Shown one piece after another: positions 8,491-61,489 of a stretch of DNA of 64,000 nucleotides (the stretch's first letter is position 1; the number at the start of each line of letters is the position of its first letter). The stretch comes from Candidatus Thorarchaeota archaeon (GTDB lineage: Archaea > Asgardarchaeota > Thorarchaeia > Thorarchaeales > Thorarchaeaceae). Location of the stretch: positions 1 to 64,000 of the forward strand of contig JAGSHN010000030.1 in assembly GCA_029855935.1 (NCBI GenBank), read 5' to 3'. Position numbers and translations under genes: made by a program. A model generated the notes under the pieces. The model saw nothing but the letters and a program-made list of their open reading frames with translations, searched no databases and had not been told where the DNA came from.

Positions 8491-9417
8491 ATGACACTAC
8501 TGCCCAAGAGCCGCTCCCGAGAATCAGTGATGATTGCCTTCGTCCGCTCCGTGTGCAATATGGTGGAGCGGGGGGACATTGACCTAATCGGCGAGTCTCT
8601 CAGAGGATACTGGGTAGACAAGAAGGCTCATCCGTGGCACAGAGTCCTGAAATACCTTCAGAGGAAGGGTGACAAGTACGCTGATCAGAAGCAGCTCGCA
8701 GAGTGGGTCGGCGTGCTCAGGGACGGGGTGTTTGCAGCACTTGATGCACTGTCGCTGAATCTGGCAGTGGACATTAGTATTGAGGAGATCCTCTCGACTC
8801 TGCTCTCTGCAGAGACGTGGCGTGATGGTAGGAGGGAGGTACGCAACGTGTTGGCAAAGGTCGCGTTGGACCTGATAGATCGGCACAAGCTGGACCACCT
8901 GCAGCCCTCGGAACTGGCAAGAGACGGGTTCGGCTTTCTTGTGCCGCGTCTCCTTGATTCACAAATCCGACAATTGGAGAAGTGCCGGCCTGTGGAGAAG
9001 GATGACACCATCGACCTGACGGCTCTTCACAGGTCAGTCCTGGGTAGGATGGTCCTCCGAAGTGCCGAGGTCGGAGAGAGGAAGCTGAGGAGGGACGATC
9101 CCCGGGTCTCCGAGCTTTTCGCCGCGTACGATCGAATGCTTCTGGACAAAGAGGTCGAGAAGGGGACCCTTGCCACAAAACTTGATGAGCTCACTGCACA
9201 GGCCACGCTGAACGGACAGGTAGTAGAAGAGGCAAGGGCAATCTCTGCACCGGAGCCCGCTGTGGGTGTGGGAGTGGAGGAGAACGGGAGGACTCAGAAG
9301 CCTCTGACGGAGTTCATCGACGAGAAACAGCCATCGGCTCGAGAGAAGAAGACGAAGAAGAGTGCCACAAAGGGTCCGAAGCGAAAGAAGAAGAGTGGGG
9401 GCAGCAAGAAGAGATGA
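8491..9417 (+). CDS. Hypothetical protein with PIP-box-like motif and basic tail
   Basis: GGAGG directly before ATG 8491; QKPLTEFI; Lys-rich C-terminus; ATGA overlap with next gene. Confidence 0.75.
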   Translation: MTLLPKSRSRESVMIAFVRSVCNMVERGDIDLIGESLRGYWVDKKAHPWHRVLKYLQRKGDKYADQKQLAEWVGVLRDGVFAALDALSLNLAVDISIEEILSTLLSAETWRDGRREVRNVLAKVALDLIDRHKLDHLQPSELARDGFGFLVPRLLDSQIRQLEKCRPVEKDDTIDLTALHRSVLGRMVLRSAEVGERKLRRDDPRVSELFAAYDRMLLDKEVEKGTLATKLDELTAQATLNGQVVEEARAISAPEPAVGVGVEENGRTQKPLTEFIDEKQPSAREKKTKKSATKGPKRKKKSGGSKKR

Positions 9418-10889
9418 ATGACCAAGTGGACATCGCCAAGCTTGAGAAGAGTCACATCAGCGGCATGCGTCGACTCATAGTCTCCCTCGATTCTCCCGAC
9501 CCCAAGACAATGTACGCTGCAGCGGGCAAGATGATGGCCCACGAGAACAGCATCGCGCTACTGCCGAAAGCAATGAGCCTGCTGGATACCGACGACGCGA
9601 CTATTCGGAGACTGATGTTCAGGACTGCTGCACAGCTTATGTACGGAAAGTACGTCGGGGCACTCATAGAGGCCTTTGACAACATCTCTCCTGCGGAGCG
9701 GGAGCAGGTGCTGCAGCTCGTCGAGGAGCGACTTCGGAACCGGGGCGGACCCTCAAGCCGCTACGAGCAGGAGAACTGGGTTCAGGCGCTACAGAGGCTC
9801 GGCCGTGAGCATCAACCAACAGTGCTTGGCATCATGTCGTTCCTTGGAAGGCCCGGCCTGAAATGGGTCAAGGACCTAGTCTCTGAACGCATTCAGGAGG
9901 TCACTCCTGCAGCTATCCACAGGCTCAACACAATCCCCAACTCGCAGAGAAGGCGCCTCCTCCGACTGGCCGTCGAGAGAGCCGTCCAGCGGAACAGAGA
10001 GCTGATTCCCTACATCATCGATGCTCTCGATGAGAAGAGCCTGAAATATGCGACGATGATCCTCAGAGAGGGGGCCTGGAGAGAGCGTGCGATGGTCGCT
10101 GCAAAGGTCGCTCGTCTCGGGATTCGTAGTTGTCGAGGTATCGTTCTCGACATCTTGGCCGACCCGGACTGGCGGGTGAAGCAGGCCCTGCTGGAGAACA
10201 TCGACATTAGCAAGAGCAAGTTCTCGGCACTCTTGCAGCTGCTCGGCTATGTGATCGCCGACTCACACGCCCGGGTACGGGGCCACGCCGAGAGACTTGC
10301 GCTTCTGCTTGGCATACAGACATGTCTTGATGGTGATCTTGAGAGGCAGCGCACCAGAGTGGAGAAGAGATACAGGAAGCAGCTGCTCCGCGCCGCTCAG
10401 CATAACCCAGATGTCGATTCCTCTTGGCTTGGCGTACAAGTGGTGGTCCCCGAGGTCGAGTTGGAGCCCGAGGAGCAGGAGGAGGGTCTCAGCCTTGGTG
10501 ACCTTGGTGCCGGAGCAGAGGAGAGGCGTCCATCGCCGGGCGAAGAGCCACGGCCAGAGAGCGCGCCGGCAAGCCCTGATGTATCGTCACTGCTTGCTGC
10601 ACTGAAGAGGACAAAGCAGTCCGTGTCCGCGGGAACTCAAGAGTCCGTCCTGAAGGCTGTGGAACGTGTTGACGAGTCGGCGGCTGTGACAGACAGGTTC
10701 ATCGAGACGTTGAAGGAGCTCAGTGAGTCATTCGGCAAGGACGTCCCAATGGAGTCGCTCCGTAAGGAGCTCAGGGCAGACGGAGTCACAGATGAGGACT
10801 TTGAGAGGGCTCTTGAGGCCCTTGAGCGAGACGGCCTTGTGTACCGTTCGGGCAAGGACACCGTAAGCTACGTGGATATGGAACTCTGA
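9414..10889 (+). CDS. HEAT-repeat protein with C-terminal winged helix
   Basis: HEAT-like LDTDDATIRR, LADPDWRVKQ, IADSHARVRG; acidic linker; FERALEALERDGLVYRSG wHTH end. Confidence 0.75.
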   Translation: MNDQVDIAKLEKSHISGMRRLIVSLDSPDPKTMYAAAGKMMAHENSIALLPKAMSLLDTDDATIRRLMFRTAAQLMYGKYVGALIEAFDNISPAEREQVLQLVEERLRNRGGPSSRYEQENWVQALQRLGREHQPTVLGIMSFLGRPGLKWVKDLVSERIQEVTPAAIHRLNTIPNSQRRRLLRLAVERAVQRNRELIPYIIDALDEKSLKYATMILREGAWRERAMVAAKVARLGIRSCRGIVLDILADPDWRVKQALLENIDISKSKFSALLQLLGYVIADSHARVRGHAERLALLLGIQTCLDGDLERQRTRVEKRYRKQLLRAAQHNPDVDSSWLGVQVVVPEVELEPEEQEEGLSLGDLGAGAEERRPSPGEEPRPESAPASPDVSSLLAALKRTKQSVSAGTQESVLKAVERVDESAAVTDRFIETLKELSESFGKDVPMESLRKELRADGVTDEDFERALEALERDGLVYRSGKDTVSYVDMEL

Positions 10890-10996
10890 TCTCCTTTCCT
10901 CTGCTGGCAAGTGCAAGACGGATTCCAAGAGGCGGGCGCTCACCCGCCGCAAAGACTAAGTGGCCAGCAGTTCTTGGTCGGGAGGACCGGAGAGAT

Positions 10997-12328
10997 ATGA
11001 GAATGGGACGGACCACTCTCATCAGGAATGCAGTGATAGTGACCGTCGACGACAGCAATACCGTCTATGACAGAGGGTACGTGTACGTTGAGGACGGCAA
11101 GATCACAGATGTTGGCGAGGGGGACACCAAGGACGACGCCGATATGGTTCTCGACCTGCCGGGAAGGATCGTGATGCCCGGTATCGTTGTGGCGCACACG
11201 CATCTCTATGGCATACTGCTCAGAGGCGCAGCCCTCAGAATAGCCCCACCAACGGACTTTGCGCAGGTCCTTCAGAGGATCTGGTGGCCCGTCGACGAGG
11301 CGCTCACGGTCGATGATGCGTATGCCAGCGCACTCTCTGCAGGTGCCGAGATGCTGCTCAGTGGCTGCACCACCTTTGCCGACACGTACTCCGGTCCAAA
11401 CGCAATAGAGGGTTGTCTCGAGGCAATTGCCAGAGCAACGGACGAGCTAGGAATGAGAGGAATCATCGCCTTCGAGGTCACAGAGCGTCACTCCCCAGAG
11501 GAAGCGGAGAGAGGTCTCGACGAGACGCAGCACGCTGCGAGGACCCTTTCGTCTGATGATAAGATCTCCCTGATGGTCAGTGTACACGCCTCTTTCACCG
11601 TCAGCGACGGACTCATCACAAAGGCCGTGCGTCGGGCGCGCACACTTGACCTGCCCCTGACCATTCACACATCTGAAGGTCTTGTGGACCTCTACCACAA
11701 TCTGGAGAAGTACGGCGAGCGCACAATCGAACGCCTCGACAGGCTTGGCGCGGTCACGTCATCGACCGTGCTTGCTCACTGCGTTCACGTCAACGACACA
11801 GAACTCGACATTGTGGCCGAACGTGGCGCCTCTGTCGCCCATAATCCAATGAGCAACATGCTGAACGCGGTGGGCGTGGCACCAGTCCCGAAGATGCTGA
11901 ACAGAGGCATCACGGTCGGGCTGGGCAATGATGGCTGGATCTTCGACCCATTCGAGAACATGCGATGCGCACTCACCGTGCACCGGCTCGCCGCAGGAGA
12001 CCCCAGCGTCGTAGACGAGAACACTGTCTTGCGGATGGCCACAGTAGAGGCAGCGAGATGCTATGGCCTAGAGGGGCGGGTCGGATCCATCAGGGTGAGT
12101 AACGACGCGGACGTCATTGTCATTGACGGACGCGGTCTTCCCACTCCTGTGACCTCACGGTCGGTCATCGGCCACATCGTACATAGCGTCCGTGGCAGTG
12201 ATGTAGAACACGTACTCGTGGGCGGTGAATTGGTCGTTAGAGACCACGCCCTTGTGCGGGTGGACAGGTCTCGGGTCAGCGAGATCTCCCGCAGAGCTGC
12301 ACGCGCGCTATGGGACCGCCTCCATTGA
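10997..12328 (+). CDS. Amidohydrolase, SsnA/MTA-SAH deaminase-like
   Basis: AHTHLY, PPTDF..IWW, IHTSE, LAHCVH, GLGND metal-binding motifs. Confidence 0.9.
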   Translation: MRMGRTTLIRNAVIVTVDDSNTVYDRGYVYVEDGKITDVGEGDTKDDADMVLDLPGRIVMPGIVVAHTHLYGILLRGAALRIAPPTDFAQVLQRIWWPVDEALTVDDAYASALSAGAEMLLSGCTTFADTYSGPNAIEGCLEAIARATDELGMRGIIAFEVTERHSPEEAERGLDETQHAARTLSSDDKISLMVSVHASFTVSDGLITKAVRRARTLDLPLTIHTSEGLVDLYHNLEKYGERTIERLDRLGAVTSSTVLAHCVHVNDTELDIVAERGASVAHNPMSNMLNAVGVAPVPKMLNRGITVGLGNDGWIFDPFENMRCALTVHRLAAGDPSVVDENTVLRMATVEAARCYGLEGRVGSIRVSNDADVIVIDGRGLPTPVTSRSVIGHIVHSVRGSDVEHVLVGGELVVRDHALVRVDRSRVSEISRRAARALWDRLH

Positions 12329-31903: not shown

Positions 31904-32674
31904 GACCACCAGATCGCTCTTCGGACGCGCAAACAGGTCCTCAGCAGGGTCGCGCAGGATGCTTGTGGCAGTCCCCTCCGTTCTCTCGACTCGGAGCCCT
32001 CTGACCACCGCCACCGGGACACCCTCATCTGCCTGGCCCATCACGAGCTCGGCGGCCGCCGCTATCTCGTCGGCAACACAGATGAGCGACGACTTCAACA
32101 CCCGGCCGAAGAGGTCGGTCTTTCCGGCATTCCGGACAAACGGGTCGATGCCAGAGACCCCGATACACACATTGACAGCGCCCCTACGCCACGGCCGACC
32201 CTGGGTGTCCGTGATGATCACGCCCACCGACACTCCGCCCCACTCCTGAATGTGTGTCCTCAGACGCTCAGCAGAGGCGTCGGGGTCTCTTGGAAGAAGA
32301 ACGACGTAGCCCTCCGTAGCGTTGCTCAGGTCCACCCCTGACATGTCGGTGACAATGCCAGCACGAGTGCGAGTGATCAACACGGGTGCCTCAACAAGAA
32401 CCTCATCAGCCTCATCGAGGGCCACCTGTACGACGCGAGGGTCTCGGCCCGTCAGTGATGCGATTCTCTCGGCCGTACGCGACACTTCAACAGTCCTCAG
32501 ATCCACCACGCGGCCCTCGGATATGGACACCACCTTGTGCGTGACGACAACGATATCGCCATCTTGGAGTCGCAACCCCGCCCTCTGCATCTGGTTCACT
32601 ATTAGAGAGCCGAGGTCATCGCCCGGAGATACGGGGGGGATTCCAGTGACAGGCACGACCTCGTACTCGGACAT
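31874..32674 (-). CDS. cofE: Coenzyme F420-0:L-glutamate ligase
   Basis: GDIVVVTHKVVSISEG, GVDLSN, DTQGRPWRRG, ADEIAAAAELVMG. Confidence 0.92.
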   Translation of the reverse strand: MSEYEVVPVTGIPPVSPGDDLGSLIVNQMQRAGLRLQDGDIVVVTHKVVSISEGRVVDLRTVEVSRTAERIASLTGRDPRVVQVALDEADEVLVEAPVLITRTRAGIVTDMSGVDLSNATEGYVVLLPRDPDASAERLRTHIQEWGGVSVGVIITDTQGRPWRRGAVNVCIGVSGIDPFVRNAGKTDLFGRVLKSSLICVADEIAAAAELVMGQADEGVPVAVVRGLRVERTEGTATSILRDPAEDLFARPKSDLVVSEDDHPKEG

Positions 32675-50880: not shown

Positions 50881-51120
50881 CTACTTGGTCCTCTTGATGA
50901 ACCAGATGAACTTGCCGTCCTCCTCGTTCATCCCGAGGATCTCGTGGCCGGTACGTTCCGCCCATGCCGGGAAGTCCTTCTTGGTCCCGATGTCAGTGGC
51001 TATGACTTTCAGGACCTGCCCGACCTCCACATTCTGAATCTCCTTCTTCAGCTTCAGTACGGGCATCGGACATCGAAGGCCTGATGCGTCAAATTCTCTC
51101 GCAAACTCGTAGTCGGTCAT
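50881..51120 (-). CDS. tusA: TusA family sulfurtransferase
   Basis: FDASGLRCPMP, VIATD..KDFPAWA. Confidence 0.92.
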   Translation of the reverse strand: MTDYEFAREFDASGLRCPMPVLKLKKEIQNVEVGQVLKVIATDIGTKKDFPAWAERTGHEILGMNEEDGKFIWFIKRTK

Positions 51121-51307
51121 TGTGCATCGTCGTCGCACGCCAGCTGAGCCCTATTATTCGTTTTCGTATGTGAAATGTCAATTTTTGAAATCGTCATCAG
51201 GTGATTGAGTTCGGTTGCAGGCTGTAAGAGTCGCGCCTCCAAAATGTGCTAGTTTCGTCAGACTTATCTGGATGATTGGCGGACTCCGAACACCTAGGTG
51301 AAGAGCT

Positions 51308-51703
51308 ATGGCAGTCTTCCAATTGCTACTACTTGTTCTGGTAGGACTGGCCATCGGGACAATGTTCTCGGGTTTCATGCTTGCCCGTAGAATGGGAATG
51401 TTCCTGATGATGCAGGTGATGATGTTGATGCTGTCGATGTTTGTGGCGTTCGGCGCCCTTGCTGTTGGGCTGCTCCTTCCGCCGCAGGTCCCTGCTCAAT
51501 TCGACCTTCTGCATCTCATCCTGATTGTCGACCTGATCCTTGTGCTCCTCGCTCTGCTGATGGAGTTCGGTCAAGTCGTCCCAATCTTGATGAAGACTAT
51601 GCAGGGCGCACCAATGCACAGCAGCCACATCACAAACCTGCTCGTGCTGTTCTTTCTGCTACTCGGGCTTGTGATGTACTACCCGATCCTAGCAGTCCTA
51701 TAG
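51308..51703 (+). CDS. Met-rich 4TM membrane protein
   Basis: Four hydrophobic helices, MGMFLMMQVMMLMLSM, MHSSH; 15 nt before dsrE. Confidence 0.75.
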   Translation: MAVFQLLLLVLVGLAIGTMFSGFMLARRMGMFLMMQVMMLMLSMFVAFGALAVGLLLPPQVPAQFDLLHLILIVDLILVLLALLMEFGQVVPILMKTMQGAPMHSSHITNLLVLFFLLLGLVMYYPILAVL

Positions 51704-51718
51704 GAGGATGAAGAGAGA

Positions 51719-52081
51719 ATGCCATCACTGTATATCATTGGTCAGTGGGGCCCTGAGGCCGCCGAGCGCTGCTACGGACCATTCGTGACTGGGACTACCG
51801 CTCAGGCACAGGAGATTGATGTCACCATCTTCCTGATGATGGACGCCGTCTGGCTCGTCAAGAAGGGTGTGCCTGAGAAGATCAAGGCTCCGGGATTCCC
51901 GCCCCTGCCGGAACTCATCGACGCGTTTCTTGAGGCTGGTGGGAAGATTCAGGTCTGTTCGAACTCTGCAGAGTTCAGAGGTCTGAGCGAGAAGGACCTC
52001 TATGATGAGCGGATCGAGATTGCCGGAGCGGCCACCATGGTGGACGGTATCTTCAAGCACGACCGGTACATTGCGTTCTAG
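51719..52081 (+). CDS. DsrE family sulfur-relay protein
   Basis: VTIFLMMDAV, GGKIQVCSNSAEFRG (conserved Cys), IAGAATMV. Confidence 0.88.
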   Translation: MPSLYIIGQWGPEAAERCYGPFVTGTTAQAQEIDVTIFLMMDAVWLVKKGVPEKIKAPGFPPLPELIDAFLEAGGKIQVCSNSAEFRGLSEKDLYDERIEIAGAATMVDGIFKHDRYIAF

Positions 52082-52420: not shown

Positions 52421-52654
52421 CTACTTCACGCACTCGAAGTACAGTGCCCACTCGCCGTCATCAATCTCCTCGACACCAAGGAACTTGTTCTTCGTCTTTG
52501 CGATCTCTCTCTGAACAGAGTCCACCGCGGGTGGATGGTCAATCAGGACCTTAAGTACGGTCCCCGGTGCCAGCTTCATCAGAGTCTGTTTCGTGCGCAA
52601 AGCCGGGTAGGGACACACTTGTCCCCGCACATCAAGCTCTTCATCATAGTCCAT
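52421..52654 (-). CDS. tusA: TusA family sulfurtransferase
   Basis: LDVRGQVCPYP, VLIDHPPA. Confidence 0.9.
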   Translation of the reverse strand: MDYDEELDVRGQVCPYPALRTKQTLMKLAPGTVLKVLIDHPPAVDSVQREIAKTKNKFLGVEEIDDGEWALYFECVK

Positions 52655-52682
52655 CTTTCTGTCTACCTCCATTATGTCTTCT

Positions 52683-53723
52683 CTATTCCTTCAGCGACCA
52701 CGCGAGGCGATAGGGATCGCTTGGATCCTCCAGTAGCTCCACAGCACCCTCCTGTTGGAGAACAAGAAGGTGGTAGTGGACCTTCTCGGGTGGCGCCTCC
52801 AGTCGTTGAGCTATCTCGACTGTGGTGGCCTCACCAACGGCCGAGAGTTCGCTCGCAATCCTCTCGCGCAGAGGCCTCTTGACCTCCGCTGGAGTGCGTT
52901 TGGCCTTACGTGCCTGAGATGCAGTGACCCTTGAGTAGTCAGCCTCACCAATCTCGAAGAGTCCTGCCCCCAGTGCCTGATCAAGCACGGCCTTCCCGCG
53001 CTCCGTCAGTGCGATGACTGTCGTATAGCCCTTCTTGCTGCCCGCAAAGCCGCAAGAGATATCGGCATGCGTGGCCACAAAGTCCGTGCAGTACTCGCAG
53101 GGCGTCATCTTTGTGGTCTTGCCGTCATCCGTCTTCCGCATGTTGTTGGAACAGAACAGGCCAATCTTGAGTACACTAATGCCAAGAGTCTCCTCCCAAC
53201 GCGACACCCCACGTAGCTCGCACGGCAGCCCGACCACTGCGAGTCTACCACGCGTGTCGCGCTGATGCCGGATGAGATGCTCCATCACGCCGCTCGGAGA
53301 GTATCTGGTCCCGGCTAGGGAGGGTATGTCGTCCGCCTTCTCGACGACCATAGGCTCAGGTGAGTACTTCTCTCCCGTCACCCCCACCACAGCATCGACA
53401 TCGCCGTTCTCGAGAAGGAACTTGAACAGTGTCGTCACAAAGCCGCCATTCGATGCACTCTCCAAGATCGCCTCGTCTTTGGAGCGGACCGAGACGACCG
53501 CAAGAGGCTCCTCGATCTCAGCGGGTACCTGTTCGGGGTGTGCCTGTGGACAGATGTCAAAACATCGTCCGCAATGGTCGGCACCGCGTCGCAGGATGCA
53601 TTTGCCCGTCAGAGTCGGTACGCCGTCCTTCATTGTGATGGACTTGCAGGTACCAACGCATAGGCCGCAGCCCTCGCACAGGCCGCGGTCAATCACCTGT
53701 TCCTTAAGCAGATCGAAGCTCAC
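52683..53723 (-). CDS. FrhB/FdhB-like F420-binding subunit with N-terminal ferredoxin and C-terminal wHTH
   Basis: CEGCGLC..CGRCFDICP, SNGGFVT, AGTRY, VGLPC, IGLFC, CEYCTDF..ADISCG; wHTH tail. Confidence 0.85.
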   Translation of the reverse strand: MSFDLLKEQVIDRGLCEGCGLCVGTCKSITMKDGVPTLTGKCILRRGADHCGRCFDICPQAHPEQVPAEIEEPLAVVSVRSKDEAILESASNGGFVTTLFKFLLENGDVDAVVGVTGEKYSPEPMVVEKADDIPSLAGTRYSPSGVMEHLIRHQRDTRGRLAVVGLPCELRGVSRWEETLGISVLKIGLFCSNNMRKTDDGKTTKMTPCEYCTDFVATHADISCGFAGSKKGYTTVIALTERGKAVLDQALGAGLFEIGEADYSRVTASQARKAKRTPAEVKRPLRERIASELSAVGEATTVEIAQRLEAPPEKVHYHLLVLQQEGAVELLEDPSDPYRLAWSLKE

Positions 53724-54966
53724 ATGACCACTCCCTGATAACACCCTGTTCATCAGTTGAAAACGAAACGCGGCTACAGCCGTCCTCAGACCGCGCGTGA
53801 ACGGCCTTGATCTCAAGAGGACCCACGCAGTACGTGTCAAAGCCGTTCTTGGCGGACTTCACAGGTCTCTTGAAGCCGCCGAAGTAGACGTTCGACAGGA
53901 CCTCGTTGCCGCCAATAGTCCGAATCTTGTCAATGACGCCCTCAAGCGCCTCGATGTCGTGCTGGTCCAGTGCCGTCAGAAGCCCGTCCTGAGCAGCACG
54001 GAGCTCTGACCGCAGCTCGCGGGTCTCATCACTCACCTGAATCCCTGCTGCAGCCTCGTAGGCCTCGATCAGATTCAGAGCAACAGAGATGCCATAGCGG
54101 CCGTAGATTGTGGCAGCTATCTGAGGTGCCTCCTCAATCGGACGAGCCACCATTATGTCGGCAAGCTCGTCGCCTGTTGATGGATTGCGTCCTGGAAACT
54201 TGAAATGGGAGGCGAGATGAAACCTGAAGAACGTCCCCACAACATCCACCAGCGAGCGCGTTATCTCATCAGGTCTGTCGCCAAGCCGGTCTGTCGCGCA
54301 GTCCGTGGCGACGGTATCCACCTGCAAGTTGACCGCCAGGGAGCCAAAGTACCCGATCATTCGACCGGGCGGGTCGTCAACCATCCCGACACAGCCCCTG
54401 CACGGAGTATCGAAGTCTATGCAGCGCTGGGCACATCTCGCAGAGAGGACACCACTACATGCCAGCCCGAGATTGTTGAAGCATTTCTCCCTGTTCGACC
54501 AGTCAGGCACGCGGATGATCTTGTCAAACTCCTCGTCAGTGAAGTGGCGCTCGCACTCCGAGCAGAGAGGCTGACGTTGAGCAGATTGCCCCTCAATGAC
54601 TGAGAGGAGTTCATCCGGACTTGGCGCACAACCGAGGACTGAGGCCACTGGGGAAAGATATTCGGTCACCGGGACCACATCTGCTCCCTTCTGATTCATC
54701 AGTCCGAATATGCCACCAGTGTACGGACAGGTGCCGTACAGAATCAACTTCTTTCCTCTACTCAGAAGCTCTCTGAGTCTTGCCTCGTCGGACTTTCGCG
54801 CGTATCCGGTGATAACGACAAAGTCGGCGTCATTGTCACTGCCGCTACCGCCGTCAATGAGAGGATGAGAGACAAACTCCACAGAGCTGTTCTTCGCCAG
54901 AGTCAGTAGATCCCACGCACAGCGCTCGCAGCCCCGCAACTGGACAACACTCAGTCTCACCATCAC
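53704..54966 (-). CDS. MvhG-like hydrogenase small subunit fused to a degenerate large-subunit fragment
   Basis: GCERC, GTCPYTGG, GCAP, LCSEC, CF..C..C..C..PCRGC, DVVGTFFRF; then about 155 extra aa. Confidence 0.8.
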   Translation of the reverse strand: MMVRLSVVQLRGCERCAWDLLTLAKNSSVEFVSHPLIDGGSGSDNDADFVVITGYARKSDEARLRELLSRGKKLILYGTCPYTGGIFGLMNQKGADVVPVTEYLSPVASVLGCAPSPDELLSVIEGQSAQRQPLCSECERHFTDEEFDKIIRVPDWSNREKCFNNLGLACSGVLSARCAQRCIDFDTPCRGCVGMVDDPPGRMIGYFGSLAVNLQVDTVATDCATDRLGDRPDEITRSLVDVVGTFFRFHLASHFKFPGRNPSTGDELADIMVARPIEEAPQIAATIYGRYGISVALNLIEAYEAAAGIQVSDETRELRSELRAAQDGLLTALDQHDIEALEGVIDKIRTIGGNEVLSNVYFGGFKRPVKSAKNGFDTYCVGPLEIKAVHARSEDGCSRVSFSTDEQGVIREWSCELRSA

Positions 54967-55367
54967 TTTGCACCTCCGGGACAGGGCGGGGTCTCTGGGT
55001 CGTACTTCCGCTCGAGGATGTCCTCAAAGTCGCCGACAATGGTGTCGCCCTCAGCAGCCCTCGATGTGTACATCGTCACGCAGTCGGTGCTGTATCCCAT
55101 CTCGACAAGGAACTTCTTCACTATCTTGACCCGTCGGAGCGTGATCAGGTTGGCGTCACTGAAGTGGCAGGCTCCAAAGCAGCAGCCGATGACTGCCACC
55201 GCCTCCGCTCCGTTGTTGAAGGCATGAAGAATCTCCCGTGCGCCCGCACGGCCAGCACACGGCACTCTCACTATGTGTATCTCGTCGCTGTATCTCATTC
55301 GTTGGACACCAGCGGTGTTTGCAGCACCCTGGGCACAATTCTGACAGAGAAAGGCCACAATCATCAC
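54963..55367 (-). CDS. mvhD: MvhD/FlpD [2Fe-2S] subunit
   Basis: AFLCQNC, RVPCAGR, GCCFGACHF. Confidence 0.9.
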   Translation of the reverse strand: MMIVAFLCQNCAQGAANTAGVQRMRYSDEIHIVRVPCAGRAGAREILHAFNNGAEAVAVIGCCFGACHFSDANLITLRRVKIVKKFLVEMGYSTDCVTMYTSRAAEGDTIVGDFEDILERKYDPETPPCPGGAK

Positions 55368-57400
55368 TCATCGCCTCCTTCAAGCTCTGCTGCCACGGAC
55401 AATAGCGCACTGACCTCTGCGTTCAGCTGCGAGTCCCTGAAGTTCCGAATCTGGATTGCACCCACTGGACAGGCCGGAACGCACGCACCGCAGCTCTTGC
55501 ACGCAACATCGTTCACCTTCGGCTTCTCCCCCTCGGCCACCGATATGGCACCAACGGGGCACGTCGTCACGCATCCGAGGCAGGATATGCACAGTTCCTC
55601 GTCAATCACAGCGGTGTCCATCCGTTTCTCCAAAAAACCCTGGACAAGGGGTTGTGCAGCAGCCGATGCAGCGCCGCCAGCATGTGCCACCGTCTGGGTG
55701 ATGTCTTTCGGCCCCTGAATGGCCCCGGCCAAGTAGACTCCATCGCGACTGCTGCGGACAGGACCCATCTTGACGTGGTACTCCTTCGCGAAGCCCTCCT
55801 TTGCTCGGAGCAGCTCCAGCTTGGCACTGAGTTTTCCAAAACCCCTCGGCGCGACCATTCCCGCGCTCAGAACAACAAGGTCCGCCTCGATGCACATCGG
55901 CATATGGGTCAGTGTGTCCTCGACCTCGACGCGGATCTTGTCGCCTGTAGGGTCAGGGGTGATGGTCGAGGGACGACCTCGGATGAATCTGATGCCCTTC
56001 TTCTGGGCGCGCTTGTAGTACTCCTCGTAGTACAGTCCTGGTGTCCGGATATCAATGTAGCAGAAGTACACCTCAGTGTCGGGTAGATGGTCCTTGATTA
56101 TGCCGGCATTCTTGATGCCGAACATGCAACACACGCCGGTACAGTATTCATTACCCACCTGATCGTTGCGCGACCCGACACATTGGACGACCACCACGGT
56201 CTTGGGCACTTCCCCATTAGACGGCCGTACTATCTTGCCTTTTGTCAGCGTGGTGGGCGCGAGCATGCGTTCCATCTGTAGCTGCGTTATGATGTCCGGA
56301 TGGCCGTAGTGATAGGCGGTTATCTCCGTCGGGTCGTACTCCTCATAACCGGTTGCAACTACGATTGTCCCGACTTCGAATGTGCGCTCCTCCTTCGTCA
56401 TCGAGAAGTCCACAGCGTCAACGGGGCACACAATGACGCACGAGCCGCAGTCGATGCAGTGCTTCGTGTCCAGAGTGAAGACTGACGGGAGGGCCTGTGG
56501 GAAGGGCTTGTAGATTGCCTTGCGCATCCCGAACCCGTGGTCCCACTCGTTCTCCACCTCGACAGGACAGACGTCTGCACATCGTCCACAAGAGGTGCAG
56601 TTGTCATGTACGTAGCGCGGCTTTGTTGTCACCTCGACCACAAAGTGGCCCATCGTTCCCTCTACATTGGTCACCTCACTGAGTGTGAGCACCTCAATGT
56701 CGGGATGACTCATCACTCCGTTGAGCAGCGGGCTGACCGTGCACATCGGGCACTCATTAGTGGGGAATGTCTTGTTTAGCATCGTCATATGCCCGCCAAT
56801 CGAGGTCTCTTTCTCGACGAGGACCACTGGAATCCCGAGCTCAGCAAGGTCCATTGCCGCCCTGAGGCCAGCGACGCCGCCTCCAACGACCATTGTGCGT
56901 TTTGTGATCGGAATCTTCCTCGTGGCCACGGGCTCTTTCTTCGAGGCCCGTGCGACACCAGCAGCGACCATCCGCTTTGCCTTCTCCGTTGCCGCCTTCT
57001 TGTCATCAGTGACCCAAGAACACCACTCGCGTATGTTCACCTGAGTGTGCATATGCGGGTTCAGTCCGAGATCACTAATGGCCTTGGCAAAGGTCGGCCA
57101 GTGCTGCTCGTACGAGCACGACGCAACGACCGTTCTATTCAGTCCGTGCTCCTTCACGGCCTTCTGAATGAGCTCAATGCCCTGCTTTGAACACATAAAC
57201 AGGTAGTCAGTCGAGTATTCCACGTTTGGCAGATGAGAGGCGAACTCGGCAACATCCTTGACATCAACGACACCCGCTATGTTCTCACCACAGTGACACA
57301 CGAACACTCCGACGCGGGGCCGTTCCTGCTCCGCCGGTTCATCCTTGTTCTTCGCCTTCCTCGTCTTCCTCTGCTTGCCTTTCTTCTCGGACTTGCTCAT
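55364..57400 (-). CDS. hdrA: Heterodisulfide reductase subunit A
   Basis: VFVCHCGENI, GGGVAG, KTFPTNECPMC, two ferredoxin modules, QCVGSR..CTGVCCMFGIK, GPKDI. Confidence 0.95.
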   Translation of the reverse strand: MSKSEKKGKQRKTRKAKNKDEPAEQERPRVGVFVCHCGENIAGVVDVKDVAEFASHLPNVEYSTDYLFMCSKQGIELIQKAVKEHGLNRTVVASCSYEQHWPTFAKAISDLGLNPHMHTQVNIREWCSWVTDDKKAATEKAKRMVAAGVARASKKEPVATRKIPITKRTMVVGGGVAGLRAAMDLAELGIPVVLVEKETSIGGHMTMLNKTFPTNECPMCTVSPLLNGVMSHPDIEVLTLSEVTNVEGTMGHFVVEVTTKPRYVHDNCTSCGRCADVCPVEVENEWDHGFGMRKAIYKPFPQALPSVFTLDTKHCIDCGSCVIVCPVDAVDFSMTKEERTFEVGTIVVATGYEEYDPTEITAYHYGHPDIITQLQMERMLAPTTLTKGKIVRPSNGEVPKTVVVVQCVGSRNDQVGNEYCTGVCCMFGIKNAGIIKDHLPDTEVYFCYIDIRTPGLYYEEYYKRAQKKGIRFIRGRPSTITPDPTGDKIRVEVEDTLTHMPMCIEADLVVLSAGMVAPRGFGKLSAKLELLRAKEGFAKEYHVKMGPVRSSRDGVYLAGAIQGPKDITQTVAHAGGAASAAAQPLVQGFLEKRMDTAVIDEELCISCLGCVTTCPVGAISVAEGEKPKVNDVACKSCGACVPACPVGAIQIRNFRDSQLNAEVSALLSVAAELEGGDE

Positions 57401-58278
57401 AGCTCTACCGCCTCCAGTTTGAAGTCCGGTGCGATCGTCTGGTACTCGAGTCCAATGTCATCCAGTCCCATTGCAAAGGCCGTGAGCTGCGAGATGTGAA
57501 TGACCGGGACGTTGAAGTTAGTCCCGAATTTCTCGTTCAGGCTCTTCTGACCAGTGTCGAACTGTAGATGGCAGAAGGGGCAGATGTCCAGGATTGCCTC
57601 GGCCCCAACCTCCGTTATGGCCGCCATCTTCTCGCCCAACATCTCCAGCGAGACCTCGATGTGACCTGCTCTCACACCGCCGCCCGCTCCGCAGCACGCG
57701 TGTTTCCTGCGGTAGTCAATCAACTCGACGCCGAGTGCCTCAAAGTAGTCTTCAAGAATCGTCGGGTCCTCGGGATCGTCAATCTGTTTGAGGTGGAATG
57801 GCCGAAGGAAGTGACAACCATAGTGGATTGCACCACGCAGACGCACCTTGCGCTTGAGATAGTCCCGAATCCCATAGGGCCCAATGTCAAAACCGAGGAC
57901 CTGAGCAATGTGTTTGACCTCCTGATTCGCCTCGACATGATAGCCGAGATCCGCCAGCCGGGCGTTCACATCCTTTTTCAGCTCCTCGTCGTTCTTCAGG
58001 GCGTGGTTTACCTCGAAGAGTGTGCCGAAGCATCCGTTGCACACAGTGAGGAGGTCTGCACCGTTCGCCTCCGCGATGGCGAGGTTTCTTGCTGCAGCCA
58101 CCATCCAGTCCGGCTTGTTGAAGGAGCGGAAGACTCCGGGTGCAGGACAGCAGCCCGCGCGCTCCATCTCCTTGATCTCGATTCCCAGCTTGTCCAGAAC
58201 AAATCGTGTCGTGGACTCAATGGCGGGATATCGGTTGGGCATTATGCAGCCCAGAAACAACGAGTATGACTGTGCCAC
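57397..58278 (-). CDS. hdrB: Heterodisulfide reductase subunit B
   Basis: FLGCIMPNRYP, CCPAPG, CNGC, HYGCH, CCGAGGG, CPFCHLQFD. Confidence 0.95.
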   Translation of the reverse strand: MAQSYSLFLGCIMPNRYPAIESTTRFVLDKLGIEIKEMERAGCCPAPGVFRSFNKPDWMVAAARNLAIAEANGADLLTVCNGCFGTLFEVNHALKNDEELKKDVNARLADLGYHVEANQEVKHIAQVLGFDIGPYGIRDYLKRKVRLRGAIHYGCHFLRPFHLKQIDDPEDPTILEDYFEALGVELIDYRRKHACCGAGGGVRAGHIEVSLEMLGEKMAAITEVGAEAILDICPFCHLQFDTGQKSLNEKFGTNFNVPVIHISQLTAFAMGLDDIGLEYQTIAPDFKLEAVEL

Positions 58279-58820
58279 TAACGTTCTTCCTCCTCGTCAT
58301 GGTCCTCTGGTCTCGGTGGCAACTGGAAGAGCGTTTTGCCGAGCTTCTCCAGTTCTTCGGGATAACAGTAAACAGTGGGAGGGAGCTCGGGCAGGCCGAG
58401 CTCCTTTCTTATCTTGCGAATCCTGTCGTTGATGGGGACAGCGTGGCCCGTCTTGTGTAGAAGGTCCACCGTCTTGCGATGCTTGTCGCTGATGAATCCC
58501 CTCGCTGATGCCAGGTTTCTGAGGGCAATTATCGCATCTGTCACTTGCAGGTCGCGTGGACATCTGTCATAGCATTGGTAGCATGTCGTGCAGAGCCATA
58601 TGTCGGGATCCGAGAGGACCACCTCGATGCTGAATGCAGCCTTGCGCATCACCTCGCGGGTACGCATCGCTGTCCAGCGCCCAGAGGGGCAGCTGGCGGT
58701 ACAGGTCCCGCACTGAATGCAGAGATTGGGATCGAACCCGGCTGCCTTCAATGTCTCCTCGATGGTCGGATCCCTCTTGCCGGAGTCCAGCACGCACGGT
58801 GGGTTCTTGAAGACGGACAA
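58278..58820 (-). CDS. hdrC: Heterodisulfide reductase subunit C
   Basis: CIQCGTCTASCP, IWLCTTCYQCYDRCPR, TGHAVP, LGLPELPPT. Confidence 0.95.
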   Translation of the reverse strand: MSVFKNPPCVLDSGKRDPTIEETLKAAGFDPNLCIQCGTCTASCPSGRWTAMRTREVMRKAAFSIEVVLSDPDIWLCTTCYQCYDRCPRDLQVTDAIIALRNLASARGFISDKHRKTVDLLHKTGHAVPINDRIRKIRKELGLPELPPTVYCYPEELEKLGKTLFQLPPRPEDHDEEEER

Positions 58821-58842: not shown

Positions 58843-59199
58843 CTACGCTCCGAAGAAGACCGTCTGGTCGGCCTCTTTCATTGTGTTGACGAGCCTGTGG
58901 ATGTCGATCACCTCGACACCGTCAATCAGGCTGCTGGCATCGATGCCGCGCTCCTTGAGACACAGACCACAGGCGATCACTTTGCCGCCGGCGTCCATAA
59001 AGTCCTGAAGGACCTGAACAACTTGGAAGAACTGCTTCGCCTCCTGTCCCTTGACGGCACAGTAGACGCCATCCTCCATCAGGATGATGGTGGTCTCACA
59101 GTCCTCCATCACAGACGTAAGTCCAATTCTGGCGGCCGTGAACGCTCCAATCTTGTCGTAGGGAGGTGTTGCGATTATTAGTGCGAACTTCTTGCTCAC
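58843..59199 (-). CDS. DsrE family sulfur-relay protein
   Basis: IIATPPY, LMEDGVY, GGKVIACGLCLKERG; GTG start after GAGGTGA. Confidence 0.88.
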   Translation of the reverse strand: MSKKFALIIATPPYDKIGAFTAARIGLTSVMEDCETTIILMEDGVYCAVKGQEAKQFFQVVQVLQDFMDAGGKVIACGLCLKERGIDASSLIDGVEVIDIHRLVNTMKEADQTVFFGA

Positions 59200-59916: not shown

Positions 59917-60013
59917 CGTCGACTGGACGCTCCCGCGAGACTCCAGTGGAGTGCCATTGCCACGGAGAGTACCTCTAAAAGGACTACAGACGGGAGTTCG
60001 CCGGCGGAGACGC

Positions 60014-61489
60014 ATGGCGACAGAGAACGATCAGCGGGTGCTTCTCTCAGTGGGCATAGATGTGGGGACAGCCACATCCCATCTGGTATTCAGCAGACTC
60101 ACCCTTCAGCGGGATCCCCAGAGCAGGACCAACAAGTTCGAGGTGATGAAGAGGGAGATACTCTTCGAGGGGCCAATTCATCTCACTCCACTCATTGGAG
60201 AGACAAGGATAGACTACGACCTGCTGAAGGATATGCTGCTAGAGGACTATAGAGAGGCGGGTGTGGATCCCGGCGATGTTGACACCGGCGCAGTGATTGT
60301 GACCGGTGAGAGCGCTAGGCGTCAGAATGCCGACGAGATTGTCCGCGCGCTCGCAGGTGAGGGTGGCAGATTTGTAGCGGCAACTGCTGGACCCAATATG
60401 GAGAGCCTACTGGCCGCCTACGGCTCCGGTGCGGTGGAGCTCTCAAGAAGACAGGGCATCACTGTCATCAATGTCGACATAGGTGGAGGCTCCTCAAATG
60501 TCGCAGTATGCTCAAAGGGTCGTGTCGTTGATACCACTGCTATCAGCGTCGGCGGACGGCTTGTCGCATTGGATGAACACGGTAGAATTCGAAGGATAGA
60601 GGCGCCGGCCAAGACCATCGCCCGTCATCTCGGTCACACGCTCAGGGTCGGCCAGAGTATTGAGCCCACGGTGATTGGCGAGATCGTGACGCAGCTTGCC
60701 GATGCCCTCGCTCAGGTCTTGAGGGGACCACAGATTGACCAGCTGGCGCAGCAGCTGATGTTGACCTCCCCTCTGAAGGAGAACTACACACCCGACCTGA
60801 TTACGTTCTCTGGAGGAGTCGCGGAGTACATCTACGGCCTTGAGAAACGGTCCTTTGGAGATATTGGTCGGCAGCTCGCGGAGCAGGTTGCGATGCGCGT
60901 GGACTCACTCGGTATGTCGTTGGGGGAGGTCGAGCAGAGGATCAGAGCCACTGTCATCGGAGTGGGGCAGAACACCCTCCGTGTAAGCGGATCAACGACG
61001 TACCTCTCAGAAGGCGTCAGATTCCCGTTTCGGGATCTTCCCGTCGTCGAACCACTGCTGTCAGAGCGCTGGTGGAAGAAGGGGAGCGTCGTTGAAGAGA
61101 TAGGGCACGCGCTGAAGAGGTTTGACCTCCGAGAGGCGAGCGACGCATTCCTCCTCTCCTTCAGGGGACACCTCCCTCCTTCCTATGAGATTCTGGCAGA
61201 GTTCTCGCGCGGGCTTGTGCGGGCGGTCAGGGACCACTGTCAGGACGGAAGGCCACTGTTTCTCTGCTTTCAAGAGGACATCGGCAACAGTGTGGGGAAC
61301 ATCATCCGCAGAGAGACGGACTTTCAAGGGCCGATCATCTCTGTCGACGAGCTCGATGTGCGCGAGGGAGAGTACGTGGACATTGGAGAGCCCGTCATCG
61401 GTGAGTCTGTCGTGCCTGTGATTGTCAAGACCCTGGTGTTCGCAGGTAGTGACAGCAGACAACACAAGAGGAGAGCCTCGAAGACGTAG
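60014..61489 (+). CDS. eutA: Ethanolamine ammonia-lyase reactivating factor EutA family
   Basis: LSVGIDVGTATSHLVFS, TGAVIVTGE, FVAATAGP, DIGGGSSN, SGGVA, IRATVIG, VPVIVKTLVF. Confidence 0.9.
   Translation: MATENDQRVLLSVGIDVGTATSHLVFSRLTLQRDPQSRTNKFEVMKREILFEGPIHLTPLIGETRIDYDLLKDMLLEDYREAGVDPGDVDTGAVIVTGESARRQNADEIVRALAGEGGRFVAATAGPNMESLLAAYGSGAVELSRRQGITVINVDIGGGSSNVAVCSKGRVVDTTAISVGGRLVALDEHGRIRRIEAPAKTIARHLGHTLRVGQSIEPTVIGEIVTQLADALAQVLRGPQIDQLAQQLMLTSPLKENYTPDLITFSGGVAEYIYGLEKRSFGDIGRQLAEQVAMRVDSLGMSLGEVEQRIRATVIGVGQNTLRVSGSTTYLSEGVRFPFRDLPVVEPLLSERWWKKGSVVEEIGHALKRFDLREASDAFLLSFRGHLPPSYEILAEFSRGLVRAVRDHCQDGRPLFLCFQEDIGNSVGNIIRRETDFQGPIISVDELDVREGEYVDIGEPVIGESVVPVIVKTLVFAGSDSRQHKRRASKT

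Follow-up and report, generated by a model that had tools for sequence, protein, structure and literature searches.

A complete MvhG-type small subunit fused to a shrunken [NiFe]-hydrogenase large-subunit relic without nickel ligands in an Hdr gene cluster of Asgard archaea

The hydrogenase MvhAGD (group 3c), described as part of the Mvh-Hdr complex of M. thermolithotrophicus (5ODC/5ODH), is among the known systems closest to the gene reported here. This gene lies on a contig of a Candidatus Thorarchaeota archaeon (assembly GCA_029855935.1, contig JAGSHN010000030.1, positions 1-64,000 of the forward strand; this whole stretch of 64,000 nucleotides is called the window in the following), where it occupies positions 53704-54966 on the minus strand and encodes a protein of 420 amino acids, plus the stop codon, in which a small subunit of the MvhG type is joined to the remnant, or relic, of a [NiFe] large subunit. 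Full-length homologues of this fusion protein measure about 412-435 amino acids. As in the Mvh system, the order D-G-A is found beside hdrABC; in addition, the 12 cysteines of the small subunit, corresponding to three [4Fe-4S] clusters, are shared, and the relic superposes on MvhA with a Z of 12.8 and 2.5 Å over 155 amino acids. The differences concern the large subunit in the first place. In MvhAGD this is a separate protein of about 440-470 amino acids, whereas the relic has 165 and is attached to MvhG; unlike MvhAGD, the fusion protein has no NiFe ligand, no RxEGH segment and no DPCxxC motif, and H2 chemistry would not be possible. Moreover, the place that mvhB has in the Mvh operon is taken, after the fusion gene, by an FrhB-like gene and tusA.

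A second system to be considered is Elp-Hdr of Methanothermobacter marburgensis (ElpABC), which replaces Mvh under nickel limitation and is made of a truncated, molybdopterin-less FdhA (ElpA), an FdhB-like flavoprotein and an MvhD homologue (Nomura et al. 2025, PMC12350162). The operon with the fusion gene contains the same type of gene set, that is, a vestigial catalytic subunit, a flavoprotein of the FrhB/FdhB type, MvhD and HdrABC. In both systems a catalytic subunit stripped of its cofactor part, together with the flavoprotein and the MvhD homologue, would feed HdrABC without nickel, and by analogy Elp-Hdr may be taken as the closest functional precedent for such a nickel-free arm. The origin of the vestige is different: in Elp-Hdr it derives from FdhA and is found in methanogens, whereas in the present case it derives from the hydrogenase subunits MvhG and MvhA and is found in Asgard archaea. 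Large-subunit homologues devoid of the NiFe cysteines, accompanied by a small-subunit homologue with the proximal cluster, are also represented by NuoD/Nqo4 with NuoB and by MbsL/MbsJ of MBS (6U8Y), and NuoD/Nqo4 and MBS chains match the relic at Z 10-12. These proteins differ from the relic in having the full large-subunit fold (370-600 amino acids), a quinone or sulfur pocket and a location on a membrane arm; furthermore, their small subunit keeps one cluster, whereas the fusion protein keeps three and has no membrane subunit in its operon. Finally, archaea have HyhS-HydA hybrid hydrogenases, in which an active [FeFe] H-cluster domain follows a group 3 small-subunit domain on the same chain (Greening et al. 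2024, PMC11216029). Like the fusion protein, these hybrids carry another module at the C-terminus of the small subunit, which illustrates the modularity of the latter, but their partner is an active [FeFe] domain with a real [NiFe] large subunit alongside, whereas the partner found here is a dead remnant. Proteins such as NuoD and MbsL, which are large-subunit homologues without nickel, and ElpA, a degraded catalytic subunit, represent kinds already known; the novelty lies in a large subunit that keeps only a third of its length and is joined to a small subunit complete with its three clusters. Literature searches brought to light no description of the relic.

The N-terminal domain of the fusion protein (residues 1-255, positions 54202-54966, minus strand) is identified as a small subunit of the MvhG type by Pfam, by alignment with chain 5odc_E, by its invariant cysteines and by Foldseek. 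In particular, Pfam recognises PF01058 (Oxidored_q6) at residues 29-124 with an E-value of 1.6e-12 and 47.7 bits against a cut-off of 27, and MvhG is the top match in a Foldseek search with the full-length model. Similarity to MvhG of the solved Mvh-Hdr complex (5odc_E, E 3e-14) spans residues 2-255 and stops a few residues short of the end of the MvhG chain, the normal MvhG end being represented by DVVGTFFRFHLAS at residues 241-253. Since the similarity ceases near MvhG's own end, the last approximately 165 amino acids, beyond residue 255, are a real C-terminal extension, in agreement with the original prediction, which had seen the open reading frame (ORF) running on past MvhG. All 12 conserved cysteines correspond to cluster ligands of MvhG in 5odc_E, namely C13, C16, C80 and C113 for the proximal cluster and C135, C138, C162, C170, C178, C182, C189 and C192 for the medial and distal ones, and they are invariant or nearly so in 27 family members. 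To judge from these ligands, the MvhG half is intact, with three [4Fe-4S] binding sites. It does not reach the equivalog level of NCBIfam (NF045875 VhuG, 56.9 bits against a cut-off of 450) and shares only 25-26% identity with the two canonical small subunits of the same genome, of which it is, on sequence grounds, an old paralogue.

The C-terminal domain extends over residues 256-420 (positions 53707-54201, minus strand), as delimited by AlphaFold2, VIA, Foldseek, ESM Atlas and hhalign. The original prediction had pointed to positions 53704-54174, corresponding to residues 265-420 and the stop codon, and had read three blocks of this segment as ordered counterparts of blocks in MvhA. The strings that it quoted, all four, are present where it had placed them: besides the MvhG end, these are ARPIEEAPQIAATIYGRY at residues 274-291, IGGNEVLSNVYFGGFKRP at residues 351-368 and RSEDG...FSTDEQGVI at residues 392-410. 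The corresponding segments of the MvhA-like protein of the same genome (P0046) read GRPMEEAPRIVPRICGIC, VGAKAIHPTLGIPGGMLSP and EAPRGTLIHNYECDENGYI, and they are close to the MvhA strings quoted in that prediction.

Single-sequence comparison detects this relationship faintly. Pfam, including PF00374, reports nothing on the tail and only Oxidored_q6 for the full protein; among PDB sequences phmmer finds FrhA (L1 region) as the best match of the tail, with an E-value of 0.54 only; and the best NCBIfam family is frhA, weak and again at the place of L1. With family information the signal becomes clear. Full-length homologues from Thor- and Hermodarchaeota (29 proteins of about 412-431 amino acids, 27 of them aligned) provided a tail alignment that served as relic profile. 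When PDB sequences are searched with this profile, [NiFe] large subunits take the six best places (sulfhydrogenase I alpha, cytosolic NiFe hydrogenase alpha and FrhA), each hit in the L1 region at residues ~43-104 with E-values from 9e-4 to 1.5e-3. In genome scans the relic profile also recovers real large subunits at L1 (E ~1e-6), and by BLASTP the tail matches P0046 with 38% identity over 52 amino acids (E 1e-5). When profile is compared with profile, hhalign aligns relic positions 11-116 with positions 42-181 of an Asgard MvhA alignment at 94% probability (E 1e-7), and blocks 1 and 2 both fall, in order, inside this match. The similarity of these two blocks is well beyond chance level by BLASTP, by hhalign and by the PDB profile matches. 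Block 1 belongs to a degenerate L1 motif region (residues 275-297, positions 54076-54144) marked out by BLASTP, the PDB profile alignments and the weak frhA match, while block 2 is the most conserved motif of the relic, (A/G)GNxxLSNxxFGGFKxP (residues 351-368, positions 53863-53916; family alignments and hhalign), with G353, N354, S358, N359 and G364 invariant across the family. This motif occupies the place of the large-subunit loop GxKxIHPxxxxPGG, and hhalign pairs its GGF with PGG. As to the subgroup of origin (3a, 3b or 3c), the SHI alpha subunit, FrhA and the genome's own MvhA are best by sequence and FrhA is best by structure, these differences being not decisive.

The predicted structure of the relic leads to the same family of proteins. 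Modelled with AlphaFold2 from the family's own alignment and no templates, the relic reaches a mean predicted local distance difference test (pLDDT) value of 93.3, and the same residues score 88-97 inside the full-length model, whose pTM is 0.84. The fold consists of a four-helix bundle (residues 277-287, 289-307, 313-334 and 338-352) followed by an antiparallel sheet of three strands (390-394, 398-404 and 409-417). In a Foldseek search against the PDB the top 50 matches are all [NiFe] large subunits or their homologues in complex I, Mbh and FHL, the best being FrhA (6qgr_A) with a query template-modelling (TM) score of 0.56 and 2.6 Å. A VIA search, which is independent of Foldseek and covered 48,161 chains, returns 15 chains with Z between 9.8 and 15.2, all of them large subunits or of the NuoD type, whereas the next chain, an unrelated helical bundle, has a Z of 5.6. 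The best of these is FrhA (6qgt_A, Z 15.2, 157 residues aligned to chain residues 37-404), and MvhA (5odc_F) is aligned at Z 12.8 and 2.5 Å over 155 residues of its segment 38-400. Large-subunit models of the ESM Atlas superpose with a TM score of 0.83 and 2.0 Å over 155 residues; a feature search of the same resource gives sub-threshold leads only (0.84-0.86).

The structural alignment also bears on block 3, for which the sequence taken by itself is weak: the best local hhalign match of this block alone does fall at the expected large-subunit positions 354-397, with a P of just 0.02, and hhalign prefers another pairing, in which RSEDGCSRV is aligned with the strand that precedes EAPRG and a 9-residue gap is left. 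The whole 165-residue model is, however, collinear with large-subunit residues ~38-400, which supports the block, and the three-strand topology together with the exact spacing of 8 residues between the glycine of the first turn and the aspartate of the DExG turn fits a gap-free pairing of RSEDG with EAPRG instead. The block is part of the three-stranded sheet (residues 390-417, positions 53716-53799; DSSP, VIA, hhalign) that would correspond to the EAPRG...DENG hairpin region of the large subunit. The third correspondence of the original prediction holds as a collinear structural one up to about large-subunit residue 400 and is less certain residue by residue. Profiles and predicted structures taken together, the homology of the tail to the [NiFe] large subunit can be regarded as settled, as is its identification as the core of such a subunit; the search for profile and structural similarity that had been suggested as a check thus ended in strong similarity by hhalign, Foldseek, VIA and ESM Atlas alike. 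Compared with a full subunit, this core lacks three parts, ~40 residues at the N-terminus, ~180 in the interior and 40-50 at the C-terminus, and with 165 amino acids against ~440 the relic amounts to ~37% of a large subunit, close to the third that had been estimated.

No cysteine ligand of the [NiFe] site is left in this core. Relic residues R275, E278/E279, T286, Y288, G289, Y291 and V295 correspond to R51, E54/E55, R62, C64, G65, C67 and H71 of P0046. Consequently, the L1 motif RxCGxCxxxH is replaced by T286, Y288, Y291 and V295 at its characteristic positions, and both nickel-ligand cysteines are tyrosines, exactly as first read from the sequence. Across the family, either Tyr or Gly occupies the first of these positions, and the second varies. 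The second pair of ligands is lost with the C-terminus: the protein stops three residues past the last strand and the DPCxxCxxH motif is absent, again as had been noted. In addition, the RxEGH segment is missing, with the alignment of the relic starting at large-subunit residue ~38-42 and being preceded by the MvhG end, and the active-site arginine is not conserved under either pairing of block 3. In sum, none of the four Ni/Fe cysteine ligands is kept, and the family alignment shows that no Cys or His of the relic domain is invariant. As a [NiFe] site cannot be assembled, the fusion protein is, by strong inference from its residues, not a hydrogenase, and the Asgard Hdr cluster to which it belongs, although listed as hydrogenase-linked in MK-D1, is probably not one either.

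The fusion is not a peculiarity of the present assembly. When prokaryotes were scanned with one genome for each species, 13 loci were retrieved, all from Asgard archaea and including the closed chromosome of MK-D1, an archaeon in culture; with one further Thorarchaeota locus, 14 loci were compared. The order hdrC-hdrB-hdrA-mvhD-fusion gene-frhB-like gene is found in all 14, and tusA follows directly in 12. In a survey of 400 Asgard species genomes, about 79 contain a full-length relic, without stops, within an ORF of about 412-452 amino acids; two families have it frequently (64 of 135 and 6 of 14 genomes), and its occurrence in the family of the window is patchy (7 of 85). An exhaustive search of 1.84 billion representatives yielded 17 clusters, all of them fused forms or short fragments apart from a spurious 935-residue repeat protein. 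As far as these searches show, the fusion family is rare and occurs in Asgard archaea only. Stand-alone relic genes were sought and none was found in the 17 representative clusters, a 163-residue frame in genome G204 being cut by the end of its contig. A metagenome contig of 1140 bp from ENA (L011) carries at 331-867 an ORF of 178 amino acids that comprises the last MvhG residues and the relic, followed by an FrhB-like gene, with no recognisable MvhG coding in the 330 bp upstream; the gene may be split or rearranged, or the contig, which is too short to judge, may be chimeric. In another Asgard genome (G254) there are two relic matches, on contigs C176 and C203, which might reflect two copies of the cluster or a mixed bin.

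These data bear on the possibility that the tail is an artefact of assembly, frameshift or gene calling, or a helical domain of other origin whose likeness to large subunits is a coincidence. The silence of Pfam on the tail and the E-value of 0.54 in the single-sequence PDB search might be read in this sense. Yet the same architecture recurs in 14 loci from independent assemblies, including a closed chromosome, and profile and structure match only large subunits, collinearly over helices and sheet, with a Z of 15 against 5.6 for the next chain. Such an explanation is hardly credible; it is refuted by the 14 loci, the ~79 genomes, hhalign and VIA.

The mean pairwise amino-acid identity of each domain was used as a measure of selection, the proteins of the loci being only 34-70% identical. 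The relic has a mean identity of 43%, versus 41% for the flavodoxin-like part of MvhG, and between Thor-type and Loki-type proteins the values are 34% and 33%, respectively. This indicates that the relic and the MvhG half are probably under comparable purifying selection. The orthologue in MK-D1 is DSAG12_01149 (WP_147662238.1), which NCBI annotates as "hypothetical protein" and Imachi et al. tabulate as "MvhG" (PMC7015854). It had been anticipated that automatic annotation would see a plain MvhG, and the proteins are indeed annotated elsewhere as MvhG/FrhG or as hypothetical. DSAG12_01149 is transcribed at 265 reads per kilobase per million mapped reads, with operon neighbours at 271-318 (PMC7015854 supplement). 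It is against this background that a different account has to be weighed, according to which the tail is the remnant of a decaying mvhA pseudogene, translated because mvhG has lost its stop codon, and thus debris with no function. The disappearance of all catalytic motifs and of two thirds of the length is what such decay would leave behind. Nevertheless, the tail is full length and free of stops in ~79 of 400 Asgard genomes from several families, between Thor-type and Loki-type proteins its identity matches the value for the functional MvhG half, its fold is compact and confidently predicted (pLDDT 93), and it is transcribed in MK-D1. Decay is therefore highly improbable, and the conservation pattern effectively refutes it.

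The genes of the cluster around the fusion gene are all on the minus strand. Upstream are hdrC (58278-58820; Fer4 families of Pfam), hdrB (57397-58278), with two CCG domains (Pfam CCG, E 1.6e-35), hdrA (55364-57400; Pfam and synteny) and mvhD (54963-55367; Pfam FlpD, E 3.5e-32), the connector subunit with a [2Fe-2S] cluster, whose end, at the stop codon, overlaps the fusion gene, at its GTG start, by four nucleotides. Downstream lies the gene of the FrhB-like flavoprotein (52683-53720), recognised by Pfam, by NCBIfam below cut-off and by the aligned N-termini of its orthologues. Its probable start is a GTG at 53720, with an alternative ATG at 53753; from the former, it overlaps the fusion gene by 17 nucleotides and is translationally coupled to it in the window. 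The FrhB-like protein is made of an N-terminal ferredoxin motif for two [4Fe-4S] clusters, FrhB_N, FrhB_C and a C-terminal winged-helix tail. The latter, about 60 amino acids with an HYHLLVLQ motif and a weak ArsR/HTH_20 resemblance, is present in all seven Thor-type loci (the window, L009 and L012-L016) and is unusual for a redox subunit of the FrhB family. The last gene of the conserved cluster is tusA (52421-52672; Pfam TusA, E 5e-21), and upstream of hdrC there is a gene of the dsrE family (58843-59199, start approximate; Pfam DsrE, E 5e-18) that is kept in Thor-type loci. In Loki-type loci (L017-L019 and L022-L024, and L020 at 9260-11716, corresponding to DSAG12_01150 of MK-D1) the fusion gene is followed by a chimera of 817-823 amino acids in which a GltD/NfnB-like NAD(P)H module (Fer4_20 and Pyr_redox_2) is inserted between FrhB_N and FrhB_C. 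At the position of the chimera, L021 has a ferredoxin-like ORF of 142 amino acids only.

No large-subunit gene is present within the operon in any of the 14 loci. The genome of the window encodes several intact large subunits, located elsewhere with their own small subunits, and in Promethearchaeum syntrophicum MK-D1 the single true large subunit lies 3 Mb from the fusion locus. The canonical order of the hydrogenase genes is mvhDGA. As the domains of the fusion locus follow the same order, D-G-A, the simplest history would be an in-situ fusion of G and A followed by reduction of A. It appears probable, on the evidence described so far, that the fusion gene descends from a mvhD-mvhG-mvhA hydrogenase operon and that its product works as an iron-sulfur wire. 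More precisely, the fusion protein would be both wire and scaffold in a nickel-free electron-input arm of a flavin-based bifurcating HdrABC, a proposal prompted by the wire being kept without the catalytic site, by the FrhB-like gene always coming next and by MvhD and HdrABC coming before. In Thor-type loci the FrhB-like flavoprotein would take a hydride from F420H2; in Loki-type loci, owing to the GltD/NfnB-like insert, the probable donor would be NAD(P)H. Electrons would then pass through the clusters of MvhG to the [2Fe-2S] cluster of MvhD and from there to the flavin of HdrA. As for the relic, it may have been retained as the large-subunit surface that packs on the small subunit around the proximal cluster, where it might shield the cluster, dock the donor, or both, and it might also keep the small subunit folded. 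That the relic caps the proximal cluster of an electron wire, as the original prediction had it, is plausible in view of the conservation of the 12 cysteines and of the relic itself. The high-potential acceptor of HdrBC might be, more speculatively, a persulfide or disulfide of a sulfur relay, as the conserved TusA and DsrE would suggest.

Several observations weigh against this proposal of a nickel-free input arm. In the solved Mvh-Hdr complex, MvhD sits against the distal cluster of MvhG, and in that of Frh, FrhB sits against the distal end of FrhG; if this one end were contested by MvhD and the FrhB-like protein, electrons would meet a dead end in the proximal and medial clusters, and the wire would not extend through the entire subunit. 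The FrhB-like protein does not reach the cut-offs that NCBIfam sets for FrhB and FpoF. Finally, no CofD match is found in the genome of the window (97% complete), and F420 biosynthesis looks incomplete or non-canonical there; F420 is thus a plausible donor rather than a secure one. The same genome has a strong Mtd match and three CofE-like F420 ligase matches, one of them in the window at ~31997-32641. A complex prediction for the fusion protein with the FrhB-like protein scored 0.00, which speaks neither for nor against binding.

Part of the same evidence could be read differently, the relic being no passive cap but, with the exposed proximal [4Fe-4S] cluster, part of a newly formed active or docking site. 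In one form of this idea, the site would reduce sulfane sulfur delivered by TusA/DsrE, as happens in MBS, a nickel-free sulfur reductase derived from a hydrogenase; in the other, the ferredoxin domain of the FrhB-like protein would feed electrons at the proximal end, precisely where the mass of the large subunit was deleted. The presence of tusA after the cluster in 12 of the 14 loci and of dsrE beside Thor-type loci, the invariant polar residues N354, S358 and N359 of GNxxLSNxxFGGFK in a large-subunit loop, the MBS subunit 6u8y_l among the structural matches (Z 11.5) and the invariance of the proximal-cluster cysteines, even though no NiFe site feeds this cluster, are all in line with it. Conversely, the relic offers no conserved Cys or His to handle sulfur or a metal, the two CCG domains of HdrB are already the expected site for a disulfide or persulfide, and the likeness to MBS is no better than that to any other large subunit. 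On balance, an active or docking site of this kind seems unlikely, and we are similarly doubtful about a wire reversed or repurposed so that the exposed proximal cluster and the GNxxLSNxxFGGFK surface would serve as a docking or catalytic site for the FrhB-like ferredoxin domain or for TusA/DsrE sulfane sulfur. If true, a repurposed wire of this sort would amount to an Asgard-specific, soluble bifurcating Hdr complex, coupled to a sulfur relay and made out of the remains of a hydrogenase.

Annotations of the type "MvhADG-HdrABC" carry much weight in metabolic models of Asgard archaea and, through these, in syntrophy hypotheses on the origin of eukaryotes. Under the preferred explanation, that is, descent from a hydrogenase operon with a role as iron-sulfur wire, one widespread Asgard Hdr cluster would carry only the ghost of a hydrogenase and would have to be understood as a module for electron bifurcation that does not depend on H2; its links would be with F420H2 or NAD(P)H and perhaps also with a sulfur relay. 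The family may also be looked at as a natural experiment on which third of a [NiFe] large subunit serves its non-catalytic, structural role and, in parallel with ElpA/FdhA and NuoD, on the degradation of catalytic modules into scaffolds. The orthologue DSAG12_01149 of MK-D1 makes the question open to experiment.

Some further features of the genome and of the surroundings of the cluster deserve mention. The MvhA-like large subunit of the genome (438 amino acids; contig G000:C24 at ~78.7-80.0 kb, locus L001:547-1860, minus strand) ends in ...KLPDPIVKV, without the nickel-binding motif DPCxxC, and its Thorarchaeota orthologues also have 438 amino acids; this fits a split enzyme of the VhuA/VhuU type. 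Genes of sulfur relay bracket the Hdr cluster in the window (50881-52081, 52421-52672 and 58843-59199), with two tusA and at least two dsrE, and locus L009 of Thorarchaeota has a dsrE-dsrE-dsrH array beside the cluster at 9298-11885. The position of tusA after the cluster in most loci suggests a sulfur carrier as substrate of the Hdr cluster. Lastly, the cluster is adjoined in the window by a gene of the EutA family (59951-61489, plus strand; ethanolamine ammonia-lyase reactivating-factor type, E 1.7e-138), and a gene of this family is likewise found next to it in L009.

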